Source of the DNA: an uncultured delta proteobacterium | GTDB lineage: Bacteria; Myxococcota_A; Polyangia; Fen-1088 | Direction: 5' to 3' | DNA: 64,000 bases | Assembly: GCA_963767925.1 (NCBI GenBank) | Contig: CAVYGB010000002.1 | Coordinates: forward strand, 1,216,001-1,280,000 | Shown: in pieces, positions 1,860-62,314 of the stretch | Layout of the letters: each line of letters opens with the position of its first letter | Numbering within the stretch: the stretch's first letter is position 1 | Made by a program: the position numbers and the translations under genes | The notes under the pieces: model-generated | Seen by the model: the letters and a program-made list of their open reading frames with translations, nothing else | What the model was told of the DNA's origin: nothing | Database searches by the model: none

Positions 1860-3041
1860 ATGCGCATCATCGATCGTCTGAACATCGGTGGCCCCGCCAT
1901 CCACGCCGTGGTGACCAGCAAGGGCCTGGATCGCACCCGCTTCCGCACGGTCCTGGTGATCGGTTCGATCGAGGCGAGCGAGGGTGACATGGCCTACCTC
2001 CTGGAGGAGGCGGGTGTCGAGGAGGTGGTTCGCATCCCCAGCCTGGGCCGGGAGATGCGGGTGCTGCGCGACCTCTCGACCCTCTGGCAGGTCGTGCGAC
2101 TCATGCTCCGGGAGCGCCCCCAGGTGGTGCACACCCACAAGGCCAAGGCCGGCGCCATCGGCCGGGCCGCGGCCCTGCTCTGCCGGGTCCCGGTGCGGGT
2201 GCACACCTTTCACGGCCACGTGCTGCGCGGCTACTTTGGCCCGGCCAAGACCCGCGTCTACCAGACGCTGGAGAAGCTCCTGGCCAGGCCATCGAGCCGC
2301 CTGGTGGTTCCCTCCCGCCGCCTCGCCGACGAGCTGGCGGGCGAGTTCCAGGTCGCCGACCGGGCGCACTTCGAGGTCATCCCCCTGGGCTTCGACCTCG
2401 AGCCCTTCGCCCGCGCCGATGGGCACCGGGGTCAGCTGCGCCGCGAGCTCGGCGGTCGGCCGCCGACGTGCCTCTGGTGGGAATCGTGGGCCGCATGGTG
2501 CCGGTCAAGGACCACCGCACCTTCGTCGCGGCCGCGGCCCTGCTGGCCGCGCGCCGCCCCGACGCCCAGCTCGTGTTCGTGGGGGCCGGCGAGCTCGAGG
2601 CGGAGGTGCGCGCCGACGTCGATCGCCGGGGCCTGACCGCGCGCGCGCACTTCCTGGGCTGGCGCCGCGACCTCGCCCGCATCTACGCCGACCTCGACGT
2701 GGTGGCGCTCTCTTCGCTGAACGAGGGGACACCGGTGTCGCTCATCGAGGCCATGGCCGCCGGTACGCCGGTGGTCTCCACCGCCGTGGGCGGCGTGCCG
2801 GACGTGCTCCGAGGTGGCGCGCGCGGCGGCCTGGTCCCCGTCGGCGACCCCGTCGCCCTGGCCGCCGCGCATCGAGCAGGCCCTGCTGCCCGAGGCCCGG
2901 GCCCGCGCCGTCGCCTTCCGCGCGCAGATCAGCGAGGAATACGGGGCCGCGCGGCTGTGCCGCCAGCTCGAGAACCTCTACGACGGCCTCCTGGTCGCTT
3001 CGGGACGGCTGGCCGGCCCGGTTCGCGCCCGGACCGGATGA
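1860..3041 (+). CDS. GT4-family glycosyltransferase (frameshifts near 2460 and 2870)
   Basis: RLNIGGPA, VHTHKAKAG, VHTFHGH, VGRMVPVKD, SSLNEGTPVSLIEAMAAG across ORFs 1860..2636, 2468..3184 and 2814..3041. Confidence 0.9.
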
Positions 3042-3108
3042 GGAGCCAGCTCGAGCGAAGCGCCAGCGCGCGAGCCGGCTGGGGGCCCGGGCAACGGTGC
3101 GGGACCGC

Positions 3109-5154
3109 TCATCGGTTGCGGGCGATCGTCTCCTGGAGCGCTTCGTTCGAGAGCGAGTGGACACCGAGGCGACGACCCAGCTGACCCACCAGGTCGGCCC
3201 GAACGTGGCTGCGATCGTCGGTCTCGAAGGGATCGGTAGGCAGATGGAAGAGCTCGCTGTAGGCGAGGTGGACGTGATGGATGAGTTTCCAGCCGTCGCG
3301 GACGATGGCCACCTGGGGATCGCTCGGGGGCCGCGTGTAGAGAATCACCTCATCCGAGGGCTTGAAGGGCGGCCCGCCCAGAAGGGAAGCGACAAAGGGA
3401 CGCATCTCGTGGGGCGAGCCAGGTAGCACCTCGGAGGTCAGAGTTCGCGCCCAGGCGCCTGGCGACCAGGCGATCAGCGGCACCCGGACGGCTGCTTCCC
3501 GCAGCGACGTTCCATGGCGCTCGTGACCGGCCTCGTCGAGCTCCTCACCATGGTCTGCCATGACCAGCAGCAAAACGTCGGCCGCCCGGGACAGAGCCTT
3601 CAAACCGGCGGCGAGGCGGGCGACCTCGGCATCGGCACGACGGACCTCCGCGGCGTAAGCTCGCATGTGGTCGAAGACGAACATCGCCCCGGGGTGAGAG
3701 ACGTAAGGAGCGTGGGGATCGTAGTAGTGGACCCACAAGAAGGCGCGCTCGGGCCGCTGGTCGGCGCCGCGCAGCCAATCGAGCGCCCGATCGGTCACCT
3801 CGTCCGCCGTGGCGGCATTGGGGAGCTCGGAACGCGGCGCGAGGCTTTCGTCCACGGTGGCGAACGAGGACCGGATGCGCTCATTCTGTAGCAGGTGGTG
3901 GTGGGTGGTGATGGCGTGCGTGCGATAGCCGGCTCTCCCGACCAGCTCGCCCAGCGAGGTCCTGGGCGCCTCCTCGCCGCCAAGGTGCAAGGCGGCCATC
4001 GCGAGCGAGGTGATGGGAGGCGTCCGCACGTCCAGGCGGGCAGCGCCTTCGGACGCCAGACGCGTGAGGTTGGGGCAGATGTCGCGGAGCTCGGGACGGT
4101 CATGACGGCCGAGGCCGCAGCGGAAGGCATCGATGGTGACGAGGACGACGACCGGCGGGCCCTTTCCCACGACCGCGCTCGGAACCAGCGCCGGCGGTTG
4201 CGCCGGGGCGAGCGGCACCCAGCCAAGGCAATCGCGTCCTTTCCGCGACAGGGGGCGAGCCCCCGGGTCGGCGTCGTCGCAATCGCCCCCCGCCAGGCTC
4301 GCGCTGAACCCATCGCGGTCGCGATCGGTGGCCCGCCGGCCGGCCTCGACGAGCTGCCAGCTCAGCCCCCGGCGCGTCCGGGCGGCGGACACGGCGCTCG
4401 GCTCGACCTGGTTGCGCAACCAGCCTGGCAGCAACAGAAGGACGCCGACCACCAGCGCCCCGAGGGACAGCAGCCCCACCCGGCGGGTGGCCCGCAACAG
4501 GATGGTGACGCCAGCGGCGAAGCAGAACACGCCGCTGAACAGCGCCGCCCGTTCCAGGGCGGGATACCCCGGCGGCACGCCCCAGGCGGCCGTGGCGAAG
4601 GCGAGGAATCCGAGGCCGCAGAAGGCCGCCGCCGGCGCAAGGGACGGGTGCCGCTCGAGCCGGTCCCGGACCGAGGGGCGCCGGACAAGGCGATGGATGA
4701 GCAACGCCGACAGGAGAGCGACGGTCATCCCCAGGCCATAAGCCATTGCCGTCTTGGCTCCGAAGGGCGTGTCGGTGAGGAAGCGATTGGCCCCGTATTC
4801 GGCCGCGATCAGGACGGTCAGGGCGGTCACGCTACCCGGCCAGACCGAGACCGGCAGGATCCGGGCCCCGGTCGCAACGATCCAGCGGGTTCCCGGAAGC
4901 GATCCGATCAGCTCGAGCAGGGCGCTCAGCCCCAGGTGCAGGGGCAGGATCAGACCCAGCGTCAAGGCCACCGATCCGAGCGGCCCCGTCGCCGCGGCCG
5001 CGAGCACCGACAGCTCCGCCCCCAGCACACCGCCGAGCGCGATCCGACTCAGCGCCAGCAGGGAGAGGCTGGCCAGCGCAGCCGCCCCGGTCGTGCGCCG
5101 CCGCCGGAGCGACTGCTCGGCGGCCTCTGCCAGTGTGGAGCTCCGAGAGGGCAT
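3109..5154 (-). CDS. Membrane-anchored sulfatase-fold (alkaline phosphatase superfamily) hydrolase/transferase
   Basis: N-terminal hydrophobic helices, DRDRDG...DCDD motif, VLVTIDAFR, WVHYYDPHAPY, ADHGEE, ELFHLPTDPFE; start uncertain (5154-5238). Confidence 0.85.
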   Translation of the reverse strand: MPSRSSTLAEAAEQSLRRRRTTGAAALASLSLLALSRIALGGVLGAELSVLAAAATGPLGSVALTLGLILPLHLGLSALLELIGSLPGTRWIVATGARILPVSVWPGSVTALTVLIAAEYGANRFLTDTPFGAKTAMAYGLGMTVALLSALLIHRLVRRPSVRDRLERHPSLAPAAAFCGLGFLAFATAAWGVPPGYPALERAALFSGVFCFAAGVTILLRATRRVGLLSLGALVVGVLLLLPGWLRNQVEPSAVSAARTRRGLSWQLVEAGRRATDRDRDGFSASLAGGDCDDADPGARPLSRKGRDCLGWVPLAPAQPPALVPSAVVGKGPPVVVLVTIDAFRCGLGRHDRPELRDICPNLTRLASEGAARLDVRTPPITSLAMAALHLGGEEAPRTSLGELVGRAGYRTHAITTHHHLLQNERIRSSFATVDESLAPRSELPNAATADEVTDRALDWLRGADQRPERAFLWVHYYDPHAPYVSHPGAMFVFDHMRAYAAEVRRADAEVARLAAGLKALSRAADVLLLVMADHGEELDEAGHERHGTSLREAAVRVPLIAWSPGAWARTLTSEVLPGSPHEMRPFVASLLGGPPFKPSDEVILYTRPPSDPQVAIVRDGWKLIHHVHLAYSELFHLPTDPFETDDRSHVRADLVGQLGRRLGVHSLSNEALQETIARNR

Positions 5155-58409: not shown

Positions 58410-59669
58410 ATGATCACGAAGACCCGCGCCGGCGCCGTGAACCTGGCGGTCCTGGTGGCCGCCCTCGGCTACTTCGTCGACATCTACGACCTCATCCTGT
58501 TCAGCGTGGTGCGGGTCAAGAGCCTGCAGGGGCTGGGGGTCGAGGGCGGGGCCCTGCTCGAAAAGGGCCTGTTCATCCTCAACATGCAGATGCTCGGCAT
58601 GCTGGTGGGCGGGATCTTGTGGGGCGTGCTGGGCGACCGGCGGGGGCGGCTCTCGGTGCTGTTCGGGTCGATCATCCTCTATTCGCTGGCCAACCTGGCC
58701 AACGGCATCCCGGACAAGCTGGCGGTCTGGACCGGCGGGGGGCTCGACGCCATCCAGATGTACGCGCTGATCCGCTTCGTGGCCGGGGTGGGCCTGGCGG
58801 GGGAGCTGGGCGCCGGGATCACCCTGGTCAGCGAGTCGATGCGCAAGGAGACGCGCGGCTACGGGACCACCATCGTCGCCACCGTGGGGATCTGCGGGGG
58901 CCTGGTGGCGGTGTTCGTGGGCAAGACCGCCGACTGGCGGGTGGCCTATTTCATCGGCGGCGGGATGGGGCTGGCCCTGCTGGTGCTGCGCCTCGGGGTG
59001 ATGGAGTCGGGGCTGTTCCAGAGCGTGCGGGCCACGGCCGTGTCGCGCGGGAACTTCCTGCACCTGTTCCGCAGCGCCGCCCGGGCCCGCCGCTACCTCT
59101 CGGTGATCCTGGTCGGCGTCCCAATCTGGTACGTGGTGGGGATCCTCATCACCTTCGCGCCCGAGCTGGGGCGGGCGATGGGCATGACCCGGCTGCCCAC
59201 CGGGCCCGACGCAGTCGTCTCGGTGTATGCCGGCCTGGTGGTCGGAGACCTGGCCAGCGGCCTGCTGAGCCAGGTGCTGCGCACGCGCAAGAAGGTGCTG
59301 GGCGGGTTCATCGTCATGACCGCCCTGTTCGTCGCCTTGTATTTCACCCTGGCCTCCCGCTCGCTGCCCATCTTCTACGGGGTGTGCGTCGGGCTGGGCC
59401 TGGCCATCGGCTACTGGGCGGTCTTCGTCAGCATGGCCAGCGAGCAGTTCGGCACCAACCTGCGGGCCACCGTCACCACCACCGCCCCCAACTTCGTGCG
59501 CGGCGCCGTGGTGGCGGTGACCTTCGCCTTCGAGCACCTGCGCGGGTCCCTCGGCGTCACCGGCGCCGCCCTGGCGGTGGGCGCCGCCACCCTGGTGCTG
59601 GCGCTGATCGCCCTGGCCAGCCTGCCCGAGACCTTCGGCCGCGACCTCGACTTCGTCGAGCCGGACTGA
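58410..59669 (+). CDS. MFS transporter
   Basis: ALGYFVDIYDL, GVLGDRRGR motif A, RFVAGVGLAGE, EQFGTNLRAT, LPET. Confidence 0.95.
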   Translation: MITKTRAGAVNLAVLVAALGYFVDIYDLILFSVVRVKSLQGLGVEGGALLEKGLFILNMQMLGMLVGGILWGVLGDRRGRLSVLFGSIILYSLANLANGIPDKLAVWTGGGLDAIQMYALIRFVAGVGLAGELGAGITLVSESMRKETRGYGTTIVATVGICGGLVAVFVGKTADWRVAYFIGGGMGLALLVLRLGVMESGLFQSVRATAVSRGNFLHLFRSAARARRYLSVILVGVPIWYVVGILITFAPELGRAMGMTRLPTGPDAVVSVYAGLVVGDLASGLLSQVLRTRKKVLGGFIVMTALFVALYFTLASRSLPIFYGVCVGLGLAIGYWAVFVSMASEQFGTNLRATVTTTAPNFVRGAVVAVTFAFEHLRGSLGVTGAALAVGAATLVLALIALASLPETFGRDLDFVEPD

Positions 59670-59687
59670 CCGGCGCCCTCAGACGCC
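59616..59687 (+). repeat. 72-bp direct repeat, left copy (island boundary)
   Basis: GCCAGCCTGCCCGAGACC...CCCTCAGACGCC identical to 62243-62314. Confidence 0.95.
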
Positions 59688-59751
59688 AAACGTCCCTCGA
59701 TGGGGGCGAGAGCTCGGACGAGGAGGACTACCTCGGTCCGCAGGCCGGCGT

Positions 59752-60402
59752 TCACGGAACTACAACGGGAGGTCGCCAGTCGCCCTCGGTCCCCACATTC
59801 ATTCCGAGCTCGACGTCTCCTTCGTACGCCGGAAGTGGGCGGCCAACTTGGCTGTCGAGGGAGAGCTCCGGACCCAGCACTTTCATGAAGCAATCGTGTA
59901 CCTCCTCGGGTACCCCACCGCCATCTTTCATACTGAGCACGGGGTCGGAGAGGACGGCCCCCTCAGGCCGCATTCGCGCCTTCCAAACCACTTTCATTTG
60001 GAGGGGCGATTCGTTGACCGAGGAGCATTGCTGCCGGGTTCCGGCCGCAACGCGGACGATCAGCGATTGGTGGAGGTTGTCCACGCTACGATGACGGAAG
60101 CGGAGCTTCTGATAGGGAGTCATCGTGCGCGGGATTGCATCCACCGAGGGCGCCGGGGGGAGCGCCTGTGCCTGCGCCAGCGCGCGCAAAGCCTGGGCGA
60201 CCTGGGGAGGCCCGATCGTCGCACCCGGGTACGAGCCCGGACCCCCCGCCTCAAAGGTGCTCGGCCCGCCAACGGTTGTTCTCGCGACGCCCGCTTCCGG
60301 CCTTCCTTGGGACAGCTGGAAGGCGACCGCACCGGAGACCAAGAATACGGTTGCCACGGCGATCCGAAACGTCGAGCGGCGCGAAGGAGTCGAAGTTCGC
60401 AC
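59752..60402 (-). CDS. Single-pass/secreted hypothetical protein (216 aa)
   Basis: GGGAG RBS before GTG, N-terminal hydrophobic segment FRIAVATVFLVSGAVAF, two Cys in the C-terminal domain. Confidence 0.7.
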   Translation of the reverse strand: MRTSTPSRRSTFRIAVATVFLVSGAVAFQLSQGRPEAGVARTTVGGPSTFEAGGPGSYPGATIGPPQVAQALRALAQAQALPPAPSVDAIPRTMTPYQKLRFRHRSVDNLHQSLIVRVAAGTRQQCSSVNESPLQMKVVWKARMRPEGAVLSDPVLSMKDGGGVPEEVHDCFMKVLGPELSLDSQVGRPLPAYEGDVELGMNVGTEGDWRPPVVVP

Positions 60403-60413
60403 GTGTCGGCTCC

Positions 60414-61148
60414 CTATTCTGGAAGGTTAACCTTGCCGAGCGTCTTCGATAGCTGGGCCTGCCCCGAGCGTACTTTTGCGAAGAACGAACGGCGAGCGGC
60501 CCGGTTCTGGTGCTGAAAGCTCGCGGGATCGCTGACGTCGTACTTGTCCGCCAACCGCCTCTCCTCGACCGCGTACCCCTCCTTCGGAGGGTATACGAGG
60601 TACACACTCGGTTTCCCGTCTACGCTCGTCGTTTTGAGCGTGGATGCGACCCGGATCGCGGCAAGGGCGGCGTTCACCTTTCGGTCCAGATCGCCCCCCA
60701 GCGTGGGCCAGGTGACAAGGCAAGTGCGCGTTCGGCACTCGACCTTTAAATCTCGCGCCTCCGGCACCAGAACTAGAAGATCGGCGAGACCGTCGGCGAG
60801 AGCACCCGTCTCCATCGCAGAGGCCCAGGGCCCATTGCGCGGTTCTCGGTCGAACAACTCGCTGGCGCTCGCCCCGAGCCTCATGAGAACGCGAGGATCG
60901 TAACCCGGCTTGACCGGATCCTTCTCCATGTCGGCGGGGAGCTCCGCCAGGCGAGGGCCGCAATCCCGGATGGGTCCATGTAGCCCACCAGTCTGTGGCC
61001 CGGTCGCGCTGCCGGCGGCCAGTGGAGCTGACCGCGGGAGTACCTCGGACCTATCACTAGTTAACCGTCGCGCCAACATCCCGCCGGCCGTGCCAGTAAT
61101 CGCGGCCAAAACCAGCCATGCCGAAGTGGAACGCCAGCTTGAGCTCAT
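60414..61148 (-). CDS. Single-pass/secreted hypothetical protein (244 aa)
   Basis: ATGA overlap with the upstream peptide gene; AWLVLAAITGTAGGML anchor; EPRNGPWASAME...VECRTRTCLV motif. Confidence 0.72.
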   Translation of the reverse strand: MSSSWRSTSAWLVLAAITGTAGGMLARRLTSDRSEVLPRSAPLAAGSATGPQTGGLHGPIRDCGPRLAELPADMEKDPVKPGYDPRVLMRLGASASELFDREPRNGPWASAMETGALADGLADLLVLVPEARDLKVECRTRTCLVTWPTLGGDLDRKVNAALAAIRVASTLKTTSVDGKPSVYLVYPPKEGYAVEERRLADKYDVSDPASFQHQNRAARRSFFAKVRSGQAQLSKTLGKVNLPE

Positions 61149-61417
61149 GAGCAGCACACAATTTGACAGGTGCTGTCGCAGTGACAACGGAAATACCCTT
61201 CTGGCTCGCCCTCGGGGCCACACTCCGGATATTCAGTCTCACTGGTAAAGCAGTCGCAGCCGCTGCCGCCACAACTGCTCACGCAGTCGTGATCCGAACA
61301 CATATCGCCACCAGAGTCCCCTGAGCATGCCAGGGTCTCGGGAGTAGACCCTAGGTAAACCCCAGTTCCAGCGGCGATCGCGATACCCAGCGGCAGGAGA
61401 AGTTTCGAAAGCATCAT
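61145..61417 (-). CDS. Secreted cysteine-rich peptide (90 aa; 12 Cys in the last 60 residues)
   Basis: GGAGGT RBS 5 nt before ATG; signal-like MMLSKLLLPLGIAIAAGTGVYLG...TLA; CSGDSGGDMCSDHDCVSSCGGSGCDCFTSETEYPECGPEGEPEGYFRCHCDSTCQIVCCS. Confidence 0.8.
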   Translation of the reverse strand: MMLSKLLLPLGIAIAAGTGVYLGSTPETLACSGDSGGDMCSDHDCVSSCGGSGCDCFTSETEYPECGPEGEPEGYFRCHCDSTCQIVCCS

Positions 61418-61661
61418 GGTGTGACCTCCGTCTTTGGATCGCGATTCCGACTGCGGTCCGCGGTCCAGGTTCGAGAGAGACCATCGTCGTCGCTTGCTGA
61501 TCTCACAATCCTCCAAAGCGCTGTCAGCCGGACGCCGTCAGCTTGCTGGGGTGCTACCACCACTAAGTACCTCACCAGTATTTTACGTCGTCATGCTTCA
61601 TTTCCTTTGACGTGCGAATGTCTCGACGAGACAATAATTTACGTCATGCGAAACCTTCGCC

Positions 61662-62024
61662 GTGCCGCCCCTGATGCAAGCGTCCCAACGTTCACCCAGG
61701 GGCAAACGACTCGAACCGACCTCGCCCACGGACGCCACATGCCCGCCCCACTTTGCATCGGCGCTGACCGTAGAAAACGCGGCCGTGGAGATGGGCCGGC
61801 GCTATGGGTTGAGCAAGAGACAAATTGAGATCGTGGCTCGGATCGGATTGGGCCTTCGAATCAAGAGCATCGCCGTGGAGCTCGACCTGGACCGCCGGAC
61901 GGTCACAGAACAGGTCTTCCGCGCCTGCGCCCGAACCGGCTCTAAAGATCGCGAGGCTCTTGCCGGTCGGCTGGTCGAGATTCTGCTGGACCTGGCAAAC
62001 CGAATGCGCGGCAACGATTTGTAG
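61662..62024 (+). CDS. Stand-alone LuxR/GerE-type HTH transcriptional regulator
   Basis: YGLSKRQIEIVARIGLGLRIKSIAVELDLDRRTVTEQVFRACARTG; start uncertain. Confidence 0.78.
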   Translation: MPPLMQASQRSPRGKRLEPTSPTDATCPPHFASALTVENAAVEMGRRYGLSKRQIEIVARIGLGLRIKSIAVELDLDRRTVTEQVFRACARTGSKDREALAGRLVEILLDLANRMRGNDL

Positions 62025-62242
62025 GGGCTCACATCTGGCCGGGGATCACCTGGTAGCATTGTTCGTGAGCGAGACGGAGGACTGGTGGGTGGCTTGCTTC
62101 AGTCGGCGGTGGGATTGGGGCTGGCCCCTGCTGGTGCTCCGGCCAAGAGGTGAAGCCGGGGCTGTTCCAGGAGTGCACACCACGACGGTGTTGCGGGGAC
62201 CTTCCTGCGCCTTTCCACAGCGCCGCTCGGGCCCCGGCGACC

Positions 62243-62314
62243 GCCAGCCTGCCCGAGACCTTCGGCCGCGACCTCGACTTCGTCGAGCCGGACTGACCGG
62301 CGCCCTCAGACGCC
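62243..62314 (+). repeat. 72-bp direct repeat, right copy (island boundary)
   Basis: Identical to 59616-59687. Confidence 0.95.

Follow-up and report, generated by a model that had tools for sequence, protein, structure and literature searches.

What is a small exported peptide with 12 Cys residues doing in a tight block with two membrane-anchored proteins that match no characterized family? The question is raised by positions 59752 to 61417 of a 64,000-nucleotide stretch of DNA (here called the window) from an uncultured delta proteobacterium (Myxococcota_A; Polyangia; Fen-1088; GenBank assembly GCA_963767925.1, contig CAVYGB010000002.1, positions 1,216,001 to 1,280,000). An earlier note on this DNA had described the block as a three-gene operon and its first product as either a disulfide-rich mini-protein or an exported metal-binding peptide. 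We found that the block is one of several peptide cassettes built around the two anchored proteins, here termed A and B, and that it probably makes and handles disulfide-knotted peptides.

The gene trio and its products

Three genes, packed tightly on the minus strand, encode a 90-aa peptide precursor, the 244-aa protein A, and the 216-aa protein B.

61424-61429, minus strand: Shine-Dalgarno sequence GGAGGT (ACCTCC on the plus strand), 6 nt before the peptide ATG, read from the sequence
61145-61417, minus strand: Cys-rich peptide precursor (P0001, 90 aa), from its translation, Cys spacing, charge, and orthologs
60414-61148, minus strand: family A protein (P0002, 244 aa), from the ATGA overlap, profile search, alignment, and AlphaFold2 (AF2) model
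59752-60402, minus strand: family B protein (P0003, 216 aa, GTG start at 60402), from its ortholog, family alignment A6, and AF2 model

The ribosome-binding site, the ATGA overlap, and the 11-bp gap reported in the earlier note were each found in the sequence of the minus strand. The stop codon of the peptide gene overlaps the start of the A gene as ATGA (61145-61148), and 11 nt separate the end of A (60414) from the start of B (60402). Scans of P0001, P0002, and P0003 with Pfam, NCBIfam, and PADLOC returned no match, and the trio fits no characterized family.

The N-terminus of P0001 is hydrophobic (MMLSKLLLPLGIAIAAGTGVYLG...) and has the n-h-c arrangement of a signal (MMLSK / LLLPLGIAIAAGTGVYLG / STPETLA; hydrophobic stretch, residues 6-23). 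It is likely a Sec-type signal of about 30 aa, with a predicted cleavage after TLA, just before Cys31. All 12 Cys fall within the last 60 residues, with spacings of 8-4-3-4-1-9-11-1-3-3-0 that include CxC twice and a CC next to last. This 60-aa core contains 12 Asp plus Glu residues, and 1 Arg is its sole basic residue. Two orthologs of the peptide were found: a 90-aa metagenomic protein (P0161; 72% identity to P0001) and the product of positions 2-250 of a metagenome contig (L033:2-250; ~45-50% identity). All 12 of the Cys are invariant across the three sequences, and many other positions vary. The L033 contig also repeats the gene order of the window, with the peptide gene followed by an A ortholog (P0006, 48% identity) and the start of a B ortholog, and the same ATGA overlap is present. 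The retention of all 12 Cys in the orthologs, together with the retained gene order and overlap on L033, indicates that the peptide gene is real. These comparisons support the earlier proposal of a secreted Cys-rich mini-protein, with the peptide read as a conserved, Sec-type exported product with dedicated partners.

A word-indexed protein search with the peptide found one relative besides its own entry, and there was no match to PDB sequences at E ≤ 10 or to Pfam and NCBIfam models, including those for metallothioneins, at E ≤ 1. A lipobox follows the pattern [LVI][ASTVI][GAS]C, and the residues that precede it carry no charge. The P0001 sequence ...PETLAC has Glu at -4, the L033 sequence ...QPVSVAC fits the pattern, and the corresponding sites of other cassette peptides (AEAGC, AEAGPC, and GSPAC) do not fit.

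Three familiar classes of peptide were set aside. The first is that of ribosomally synthesized and post-translationally modified peptides (RiPPs): neither a recognizable maturase (radical SAM, YcaO, LanM, and the like) nor a leader-dependent exporter is present in the 2555-bp insert that carries the trio (see below), and the leader appears to resemble a Sec signal rather than a RiPP leader. The earlier note had likewise recognized no RiPP maturase, and the insert genes have no Pfam, NCBIfam, or PADLOC family save for a weak helix-turn-helix (HTH) match. The second class, class II microcins or double-glycine bacteriocins, was rejected given that the insert has no ABC transporter and that the N-terminus is a classical n-h-c signal. 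As for metallothioneins, no family model matched, and the paralogous peptides described below differ in Cys pattern and charge.

The AF2 models of the two partners each contain one N-terminal hydrophobic helix (residues 8-28 in A and 16-31 in B), as expected from the earlier description of both proteins as anchored. In A, the helix leads through a low-confidence linker to a predicted periplasmic alpha/beta domain (residues ~76-244), the core of which runs alpha-beta-beta twice (model built from 134 sequences; predicted local distance difference test [pLDDT] score of 89; predicted template modeling score of 0.73). The 134-sequence alignment has three invariant residues, namely Y83 and the pair C138 and C143 (C-x4-C), and nearly invariant P78, E102, P103, R104, W108, A109, E113, and R219, several of which form an E102-P-R...W108-A...E113 motif. 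The family is large. A search of its profile against 1.84 billion representative proteins, with clusters at 50% identity, gave 1246 clusters at E ≤ 0.001, 479 at E ≤ 1e-10, and 56 at E ≤ 1e-30, mostly of 220-260 aa. A cluster lookup returned no source name other than "hypothetical protein." A word-indexed protein search with A found three relatives besides its own entry, and its neighbors in the ESM Atlas are also hypothetical proteins, with Myxococcota as the most common taxon.

No credible Pfam match, and none of thioredoxin type, was obtained for the 134 members of family A, nor did the family alignment find anything meaningful among PDB sequences. Foldseek returned nothing from the PDB at E ≤ 0.001 for the model. 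VIA-align placed residues ~106-190 with PulL (Z 4.8), PilO (4.2), EpsL (4.1), and EpsM (3.5); these matches are weak, the predicted fold is a common one, and they are no evidence of kinship. The possibility that A is itself a DsbA or thioredoxin oxidoreductase was rejected, as there is no thioredoxin Pfam match and the C138-x4-C143 pair lies in a predicted beta-hairpin and is not a CxxC motif.

A stand-alone A ortholog of ~200 aa, with a GC content at third codon positions (GC3) of 0.80-0.95, was seen in three genomes (L005, 1402-2010; L025, 1342-1962; and L015, 1492-2091, minus strand). It sits downstream of the same two conserved open reading frames (ORFs) in each, with no peptide or B gene, and in L005 a DUF3160 protein is next. 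Family A may have descended from a housekeeping protein of this form.

Protein B consists of the N-terminal membrane helix, a Pro/Gly-rich linker, and a C-terminal domain (residues ~95-205) in an AF2 model built from 19 sequences (pLDDT of 77, and >90 over most of residues 67-205). Its two Cys, C126 and C171, are invariant in the family alignment (A6). A full-length ortholog (P0163, 70% identity) has a start that matches the GTG chosen here. A word-indexed protein search with B found one relative besides its own entry. The predicted fold of the C-terminal domain is that of a TolA/TonB C-terminal domain (CTD). All of the VIA-align ranks from 1 to 7 are TolA or TonB CTDs (Z 6.8, 6.8, 5.7, 5.4, 5.1, 4.8, and 4.5), including the TolA CTD 2x9a_B (Z 6.8, root-mean-square deviation of 3.0, 88 of 90 residues aligned); below these rank more domains of TonB, FusB, and HasB, and the best-scoring unrelated chain reaches a Z of 4.3. 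Foldseek ranked HasB first (E 0.14) and TonB next, both weakly, and TonB_C was the top named family among the ESM Atlas features, occurring in 21 of 30 matches. The family alignment found nothing meaningful among PDB sequences.

In its architecture and predicted fold, B thus resembles a TolA/TonB-type tether, but it is not a member of the Pfam family. Membership of TonB_C (PF03544) by sequence was rejected, there being no Pfam or NCBIfam match and an hhalign probability of 1.7%. In energized TonB and TolA proteins, a Ser-x3-His motif in the transmembrane (TM) helix couples to ExbB or TolQ. The TM segment of B (FRIAVATVFLVSGAVAFQL) has no His, and alignment A6 has no conserved polar TM residue; the idea of B as an energized TonB/TolA transducer was rejected because the His of that motif is missing.

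Recurrence of the cassette and its link to DsbA

Genes with an A domain are found well beyond the window. The A profile finds 11 in the window's genome (G000) and 11 in a genome of the same genus (G001), and it matches in 12 of the 41 genomes of relatives, with G000 counted. At E ≤ 1e-10, A was detected in 14 of 301 genomes of the class and in 4 of 301 genomes of a phylum sample, all four of them in the window's class, and both of these counts are lower bounds, with nine candidates scored per genome in the phylum sample. Searches with a smaller A alignment added one distant locus among genome contigs (L032) and one among metagenome contigs (L033).

B is too divergent for a single-sequence search within the genome to find its paralogs, and these were recovered with a hidden Markov model built from the genes downstream of A. 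With this model, B was found directly downstream of 19 of the 42 distinct A genes in the loci retrieved, and a search of all ORFs added two more. In the window's genome, 6 of the 11 A genes have a B gene behind them, and none of the six B genes lacks an A gene ahead of it. Across 18 pairs, the identities among A proteins correlate with those among B proteins (Mantel r of 0.27, a value reached by 1 of 2000 permutations), which, given that the genes are adjacent and share their history, points to coinheritance and is not proof of interaction. A and B are a conserved pair. One locus of G001 (L013, G001:C390) has a tandem B-A-B arrangement (273-899, 740-1630, and 1637-2188), with no Cys-rich ORF in the available DNA.

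The earlier note had suggested looking for unannotated Cys-rich ORFs upstream of homologs of the partners, and such ORFs do adjoin them. A strict filter retained 17 ORFs from the six frames of the 9.3-Mb genome; to pass, an ORF of 45-130 aa needed a hydrophobic N-terminus, 6 or more Cys, and a Cys content of 10% or higher in the part that follows. Of the 17, five immediately precede an A gene on its own strand, so that 5 of the 11 A genes have one; the other 12 mostly look like off-frame artifacts. Across several genomes, 14 of 21 A/B loci have a Cys-rich signal-peptide ORF upstream on the same strand. With a looser filter, the density of Cys-rich ORFs is ~0.5 per kb upstream on the same strand versus ~0.05 per kb in the rest of these loci and 0.020 per kb across the genome as a whole; here, the peptides of the window and of L008 were counted as upstream by hand, since the longest-ORF start of A overlapped them.

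The peptides of these cassettes are unrelated in sequence. They contain 6 to 12 Cys, and the number is even (6, 8, 10, or 12) in 13 of 15; many have a mature part that begins with CxxC, and their charge ranges from strongly acidic to slightly basic. Six-Cys peptides from three genomes (L044, 701-961, and ORFs of L034 and L018) form a subfamily in which the signal leads into a Gly-rich spacer and the Cys follow the pattern C-x2-C-x(4-5)-C-x(10-11)-C-x7-C-x5-C. Between the peptide and A, five loci carry lipoprotein-like genes (L026, 464-1471; L031, 462-1496; L038, 542-1477; L044, 965-1492; and L034, 2172-2753, minus strand), whose products have lipobox-type N-termini, 6-10 Cys in the listed frames, and no Pfam family. 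At L016, a 453-aa protein without a Pfam family (2182-3540, minus strand; 24 Cys) stands upstream of A/B instead of the small peptide.

A second association of A is with DsbA-like proteins. At L009, downstream of a Cys-rich peptide gene and A, a DsbA-family gene (PF01323, 3.7e-12) occupies the position that B has elsewhere. The L006 cassette (L071, G000:C2:594601-599200, minus strand) is longer: its peptide, A, and B genes are continued by genes for a membrane protein of 169 aa, a protein with an HTTM domain (PF05090, 1.2e-7), and a protein with two DsbA domains and a CPPC site, all in the same direction and with overlapping or abutting junctions. In another case (L068:1831-6435; G000:C2:216659-221431), a single frame encodes an extracytoplasmic function (ECF) sigma factor (regions 2 and 4), a TM helix, three DsbA-like domains with the motifs CPFC, CPFC, and CRGC, and a C-terminal A domain. 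A counterpart frame in the same-genus genome (L069:3764-6517, minus strand; G001:C496) has two DsbA-like domains without active-site Cys. The A profile matches, through its N-terminal part, the TM helix of this type of frame. The product appears to be a sigma factor that spans the membrane as one polypeptide, with its DsbA and A domains forming a periplasmic sensor. A degraded DsbA plus A frame is present at L052. Overall, a DsbA-like domain is fused to or near A in 4 of the 11 A loci of the window's genome, which has only 17 DsbA-like frames in its 9.3 Mb. Because A is fused or adjacent to DsbA-like thioredoxins at these loci, the disulfide reading offered in the earlier note is strengthened.

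The insertion beside cysK

The window block is part of an insertion, the limits of which are set by a perfect direct repeat.

59616-59687, no strand: left copy of a 72-bp direct repeat (repeat search family D1, 100% identity, spacing 2627)
59688-62242, no strand: insert of 2555 bp with four genes, from the repeat flanks, composition, and empty site in G001
61662-62024, plus strand: small LuxR/GerE-type HTH ORF, divergent (Pfam GerE E = 7e-4, NCBIfam PedR 8.8e-6, both below the cutoff)
62049-62242, plus strand: degraded major facilitator superfamily (MFS) gene fragment, ~78% identical to 58901-59098 by local alignment
62243-62314, no strand: right copy of the same 72-bp repeat, directly next to the true cysK 3' end, from the repeat search

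The three-gene operon of the earlier note stands as described, but it is part of a four-gene, 2555-bp insert that also includes the divergent LuxR-type HTH ORF. The repeat is made up of the final 54 nt of the MFS gene and the final 9 nt of the convergent cysK gene, with a 9-nt spacer between the two. The intact MFS transporter gene that flanks the insert belongs to the resident genome. GC3 is 0.60-0.73 for the insert genes versus 0.95-0.98 for the flanking MFS, cysK, and M16 peptidase genes. In G001, the site is empty, with the MFS stop codon and the convergent cysK stop codon 1 nt apart.

The longest frame of the LuxR-like ORF is 120 aa, with the HTH at residues 50-100 and a GC3 of 0.73; a later start at Met44 is possible. 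No homologs of it were found at other cassette loci. Upstream of it lies the sole sigma-70-like promoter match of the region (61607-61635, plus strand). The degraded MFS fragment copies an internal segment of the intact MFS gene, contains frameshifting indels, and is joined directly to the right repeat. Its 78% identity equals that between the MFS genes of G000 and G001, and the agreement may point to recombination with a related organism's DNA as the origin of the insert. No integrase or transposase is encoded inside the insert.

Four other copies of the cassette in the same genome (L003, L004, L006, and L008) lie elsewhere. Mobile-element remnants are found beside two of these paralogous cassettes, with L008 adjoining a DDE transposase fragment and L004 an rve_3 remnant; L003 adjoins an APH-family gene. 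The earlier note had considered the position beside cysK/cysA suggestive for a Cys-costly product, though perhaps coincidental, and our results do not support such a link. The block is an insertion flanked by a 72-bp duplication, its site is empty in G001, and four other copies lie elsewhere, so that the neighborhood is incidental. A link to cysteine metabolism was rejected on account of that empty site and of the positions of the other copies.

Four short contigs from three soil-metagenome DNA runs are 100% identical to 59896-60219 and 61908-62181; these runs are possibly the genome's own source sample, and hence the matches are uninformative about expression or habitat.

Function and relation to known systems

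The conservation of the peptide and of A/B, the peptide-A and A-DsbA associations, the predicted fold of B, and the insertion are what the analysis shows. The reading we favor, tentatively, places the window block among the copies of a mobile, multi-copy cassette whose product, exported by Sec, would be a variable, disulfide-knotted effector. A and B would be its dedicated partners, A folding or holding it while tethered to the membrane and B serving in tethering or immunity. For this reading, we infer cleavage, oxidation, binding, the direction of transport, and biological activity as follows. Sec would export the precursor, signal peptidase I would cleave it immediately ahead of Cys31, and the 60-aa core would then be oxidized in the periplasm to form up to six disulfides. 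A, tethered to the inner membrane with its domain in the periplasm, would be a DsbA-linked folding or holding factor for its cognate peptide, as suggested by the fusions and the gene neighborhood; its C-x4-C pair may be redox active or structural. Domains with a TolA/TonB C-terminal-like fold bind partners by strand addition. On its Pro/Gly-rich linker, the TolA/TonB-like domain of B may bind the peptide or an outer membrane partner, and B would either pass the peptide toward the outer membrane or retain or neutralize it in the producer. The folded peptide would be a variable extracellular effector, most likely used against competitors, a role suggested circumstantially by the hypervariability of the peptides and by the multiple copies, low GC3, and neighboring mobile-element remnants of the cassettes.

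Several findings weigh against this reading. Of the 21 A/B pairs, 6 have no upstream peptide ORF in the available DNA (L046, for which the upstream DNA amounts to 642 nt only, and L007, L004, L013, L039, and L041), and the high-GC3 A ortholog occurs with neither a peptide nor a B gene (L005, L025, and L015). The cassette encodes no outer membrane export component, and that of the window has no DsbA gene of its own. A has neither a thioredoxin fold nor a CxxC motif, its C-x4-C pair in the predicted beta-hairpin is possibly structural only, and its best structural match, among the PulL, PilO, and EpsL domains, has a Z of only 4.8. For B, the best Z of 6.8 is below 8, the level deemed safe for a fold match by the notes of the tool. 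Furthermore, hhalign gave a probability of 1.7% for alignment A6 against 8 TonB_C domains of the same genome, P0003 has no Pfam match at E ≤ 1, and no NCBIfam model of the TonB/AgmX type matches the 19 B members. RNA runs containing the insert sequence were looked for, and none were found.

A wider reading, possible but doubtful, would make these loci an unrecognized class of mobile "disulfide-knot peptide" cassettes in Myxococcota-type bacteria, in which a hypervariable, Sec-exported, Cys-rich effector would have an inner membrane complex of its own, made up of a DsbA-coupled C-x4-C protein A and a TolA-like B acting as a tether or as decoy immunity. Their use would be in antagonism or kin discrimination between bacteria. 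A would then also serve the one-polypeptide ECF sigma-TM-DsbA-A regulator as its periplasmic sensor, either for such peptides or for disulfide stress.

Among the alternatives, the one that survives best, although we think it unlikely, is that the peptide is a Sec-exported bacteriocin acting in the periplasm or on the envelope, with A and B both being anchored immunity proteins that have no folding role and B acting as a decoy of the TolA/TonB entry domain. The distribution of the cassettes, which are multi-copy, low in GC3, absent from the same-genus genome, and close to insertion sequence remnants, is typical of toxin-immunity genes. The peptides are hypervariable and the partners keep their fold, A and B covary, and the predicted fold of B is like that of the TolA/TonB CTD, a fold seen bound by phage g3p in solved complexes (2x9a, 1tol, and 4g7x). 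However, immunity proteins normally diversify with their toxin, and the invariant and nearly invariant residues of A, seen across 134 sequences of a 1246-cluster family, would be unusual for one. A also occurs alone, as the high-GC3 ortholog, and as the sensor end of the sigma-DsbA fusion. Immunity alone would leave the repeated DsbA association unexplained.

The position of the A domain at the extracytoplasmic end of the ECF sigma-TM-DsbA-A frame in two genomes, which is typical of a sensor, brings up a different role, one that we judge quite improbable. The peptide would be a diffusible or periplasmic signal and the A domain its ligand-binding sensor, so that A/B modulate signaling and the LuxR-type HTH protein, encoded by the divergent LuxR/GerE-type ORF inside the insert, is the output. 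Nevertheless, A and B of the trio have at most ~7-15 cytoplasmic residues and would for that reason be unable to signal alone, and the LuxR-like ORF lacks a homolog at other cassette loci and has family matches below the cutoff. Up to 11 A genes per genome with unrelated peptides would moreover imply many parallel signals.

The metal-binding function raised in the earlier note would make the peptide an exported metal-binding or redox-buffering product, similar to a metallothionein or chalkophore, and B its dedicated TonB-type reuptake partner. It fits the CxC, CxC, and CC motifs and the strongly acidic core of the window peptide, and the top weak Foldseek match of B is HasB, a TonB paralog dedicated to a secreted binding protein. 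It is weakened because the paralogous peptides have no common sequence, acidity, or Cys pattern, and these motifs are not shared either (the L038 peptide has 9 acidic and 10 basic residues and that of L018 has 2 and 4). Most Cys counts are even, the associated proteins are DsbA oxidases rather than metal transporters, no TonB-dependent receptor gene is present in any cassette seen, and the TM helix of B has no His, which together leave this function very unlikely. Hardly credible is the view of A and B as general envelope proteins, a bitopic pair like PilN/PilO or GspL/GspM with the Cys-rich ORFs as uncoupled, colocated cargo: the A core runs alpha-beta-beta twice, as in the periplasmic domains of PulL, EpsL, PilO, and EpsM (Z 4.0-4.8), and A lacks a peptide at several loci, but these structural matches are weak and the fold common, the ATGA translational coupling is kept between the window and L033, and the DNA immediately upstream, on the same strand, shows a ~10- to 25-fold enrichment of Cys-rich signal-peptide ORFs.

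If the favored reading of a cassette for disulfide-knotted effectors is true, it would provide the first functional context for family A, with its 1246 clusters and no Pfam or NCBIfam model, and for the partner family B. Predatory soil bacteria would hold many diverse disulfide-rich mini-proteins in one recognizable genomic context, and the A/B pair would be a search handle for mining such peptides, which are easily missed by gene callers. A would represent a new type of DsbA-linked, substrate-dedicated periplasmic folding or holding factor, and B would be a TolA-like protein outside the Tol and Ton systems. The cassettes are small (3-6 genes) and amenable to heterologous expression.

No description of the peptide-A-B cassette was found in full-text searches of the literature, and the closest comparisons are with parts of it. 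Periplasmic disulfide-folding factors dedicated to one substrate can be encoded beside the gene for that substrate, as is the case for DsbL/DsbI with arylsulfate sulfotransferase and SrgA with PefA fimbriae. As in these systems, the gene for an exported Cys-containing substrate adjoins genes for periplasmic or membrane-tethered proteins implied in oxidative folding, and A is tied to DsbA domains. Unlike DsbL/DsbI and SrgA, A does not have a thioredoxin fold and carries C-x4-C in place of CxxC, the window cassette is without a DsbA, and the substrates are hypervariable mini-proteins in mobile multi-copy cassettes.

B shares with TolA domain III and with the CTDs of TonB and HasB a layout of membrane anchor, Pro/Gly-rich linker, and C-terminal domain, as well as a similar predicted fold. 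It differs from TolA and TonB in having no sequence or profile homology to them, no TM His, and two invariant Cys, and the cassette has no ExbBD/TolQR or TonB-dependent receptor genes. Similarly, the A/B pair is reminiscent of PilN/PilO and GspL/GspM, in that adjacent genes encode bitopic inner membrane proteins, each with a very short N-terminus in the cytoplasm and a periplasmic domain of the alpha-beta-beta type; A has weak matches to this group (Z 3.5-4.8), and a lipoprotein gene is present in some cassettes. Those matches are nonetheless below the safe threshold, genes for a pilin, ATPase, secretin, or platform protein are absent, and B is TolA-like, not PilO-like. The colicin M immunity protein Cmi has an N-terminal anchor and a small disulfide-stabilized periplasmic domain and is encoded next to its toxin. 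In contrast to immunity of the Cmi type, there are two partners here and not one, A belongs to a large conserved family with invariant residues, and toxicity is conjectural.

Among peptides, the nearest counterparts are the cis-defensins of myxobacteria, such as xanthusin-1, which are small Cys-rich peptides of Myxococcota with a Sec signal (PMC11561630), and in these respects the cassette peptides are like them. Unlike cis-defensins (PMC11561630), none of the 15 cassette peptides, P0001 included, fits the defensin Cys pattern, C-x(2,18)-C-x3-C-x(2,12)-C-x(4,17)-C-x-C, and an assignment of the window peptide to this CS-alpha-beta group was rejected on that basis. In the passages of that account that were consulted, neither an operon nor neighboring or immunity genes are mentioned (PMC11561630). 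The one-polypeptide layout of the L068 and L069 frames is like that of ECF52-type sigma factors with a C-terminal TM segment and an extracytoplasmic extension (PMC5826349). The term DsbA does not occur in the papers that a literature search on this layout found, and in L068 and L069 the extension differs from that of ECF52 in consisting of DsbA-like domains plus an A domain (PMC5826349). Exported Cys-rich peptides, as well as folding factors and immunity proteins dedicated to one substrate, are thus of already known kinds; the two partner families and the architecture of the cassette are new.

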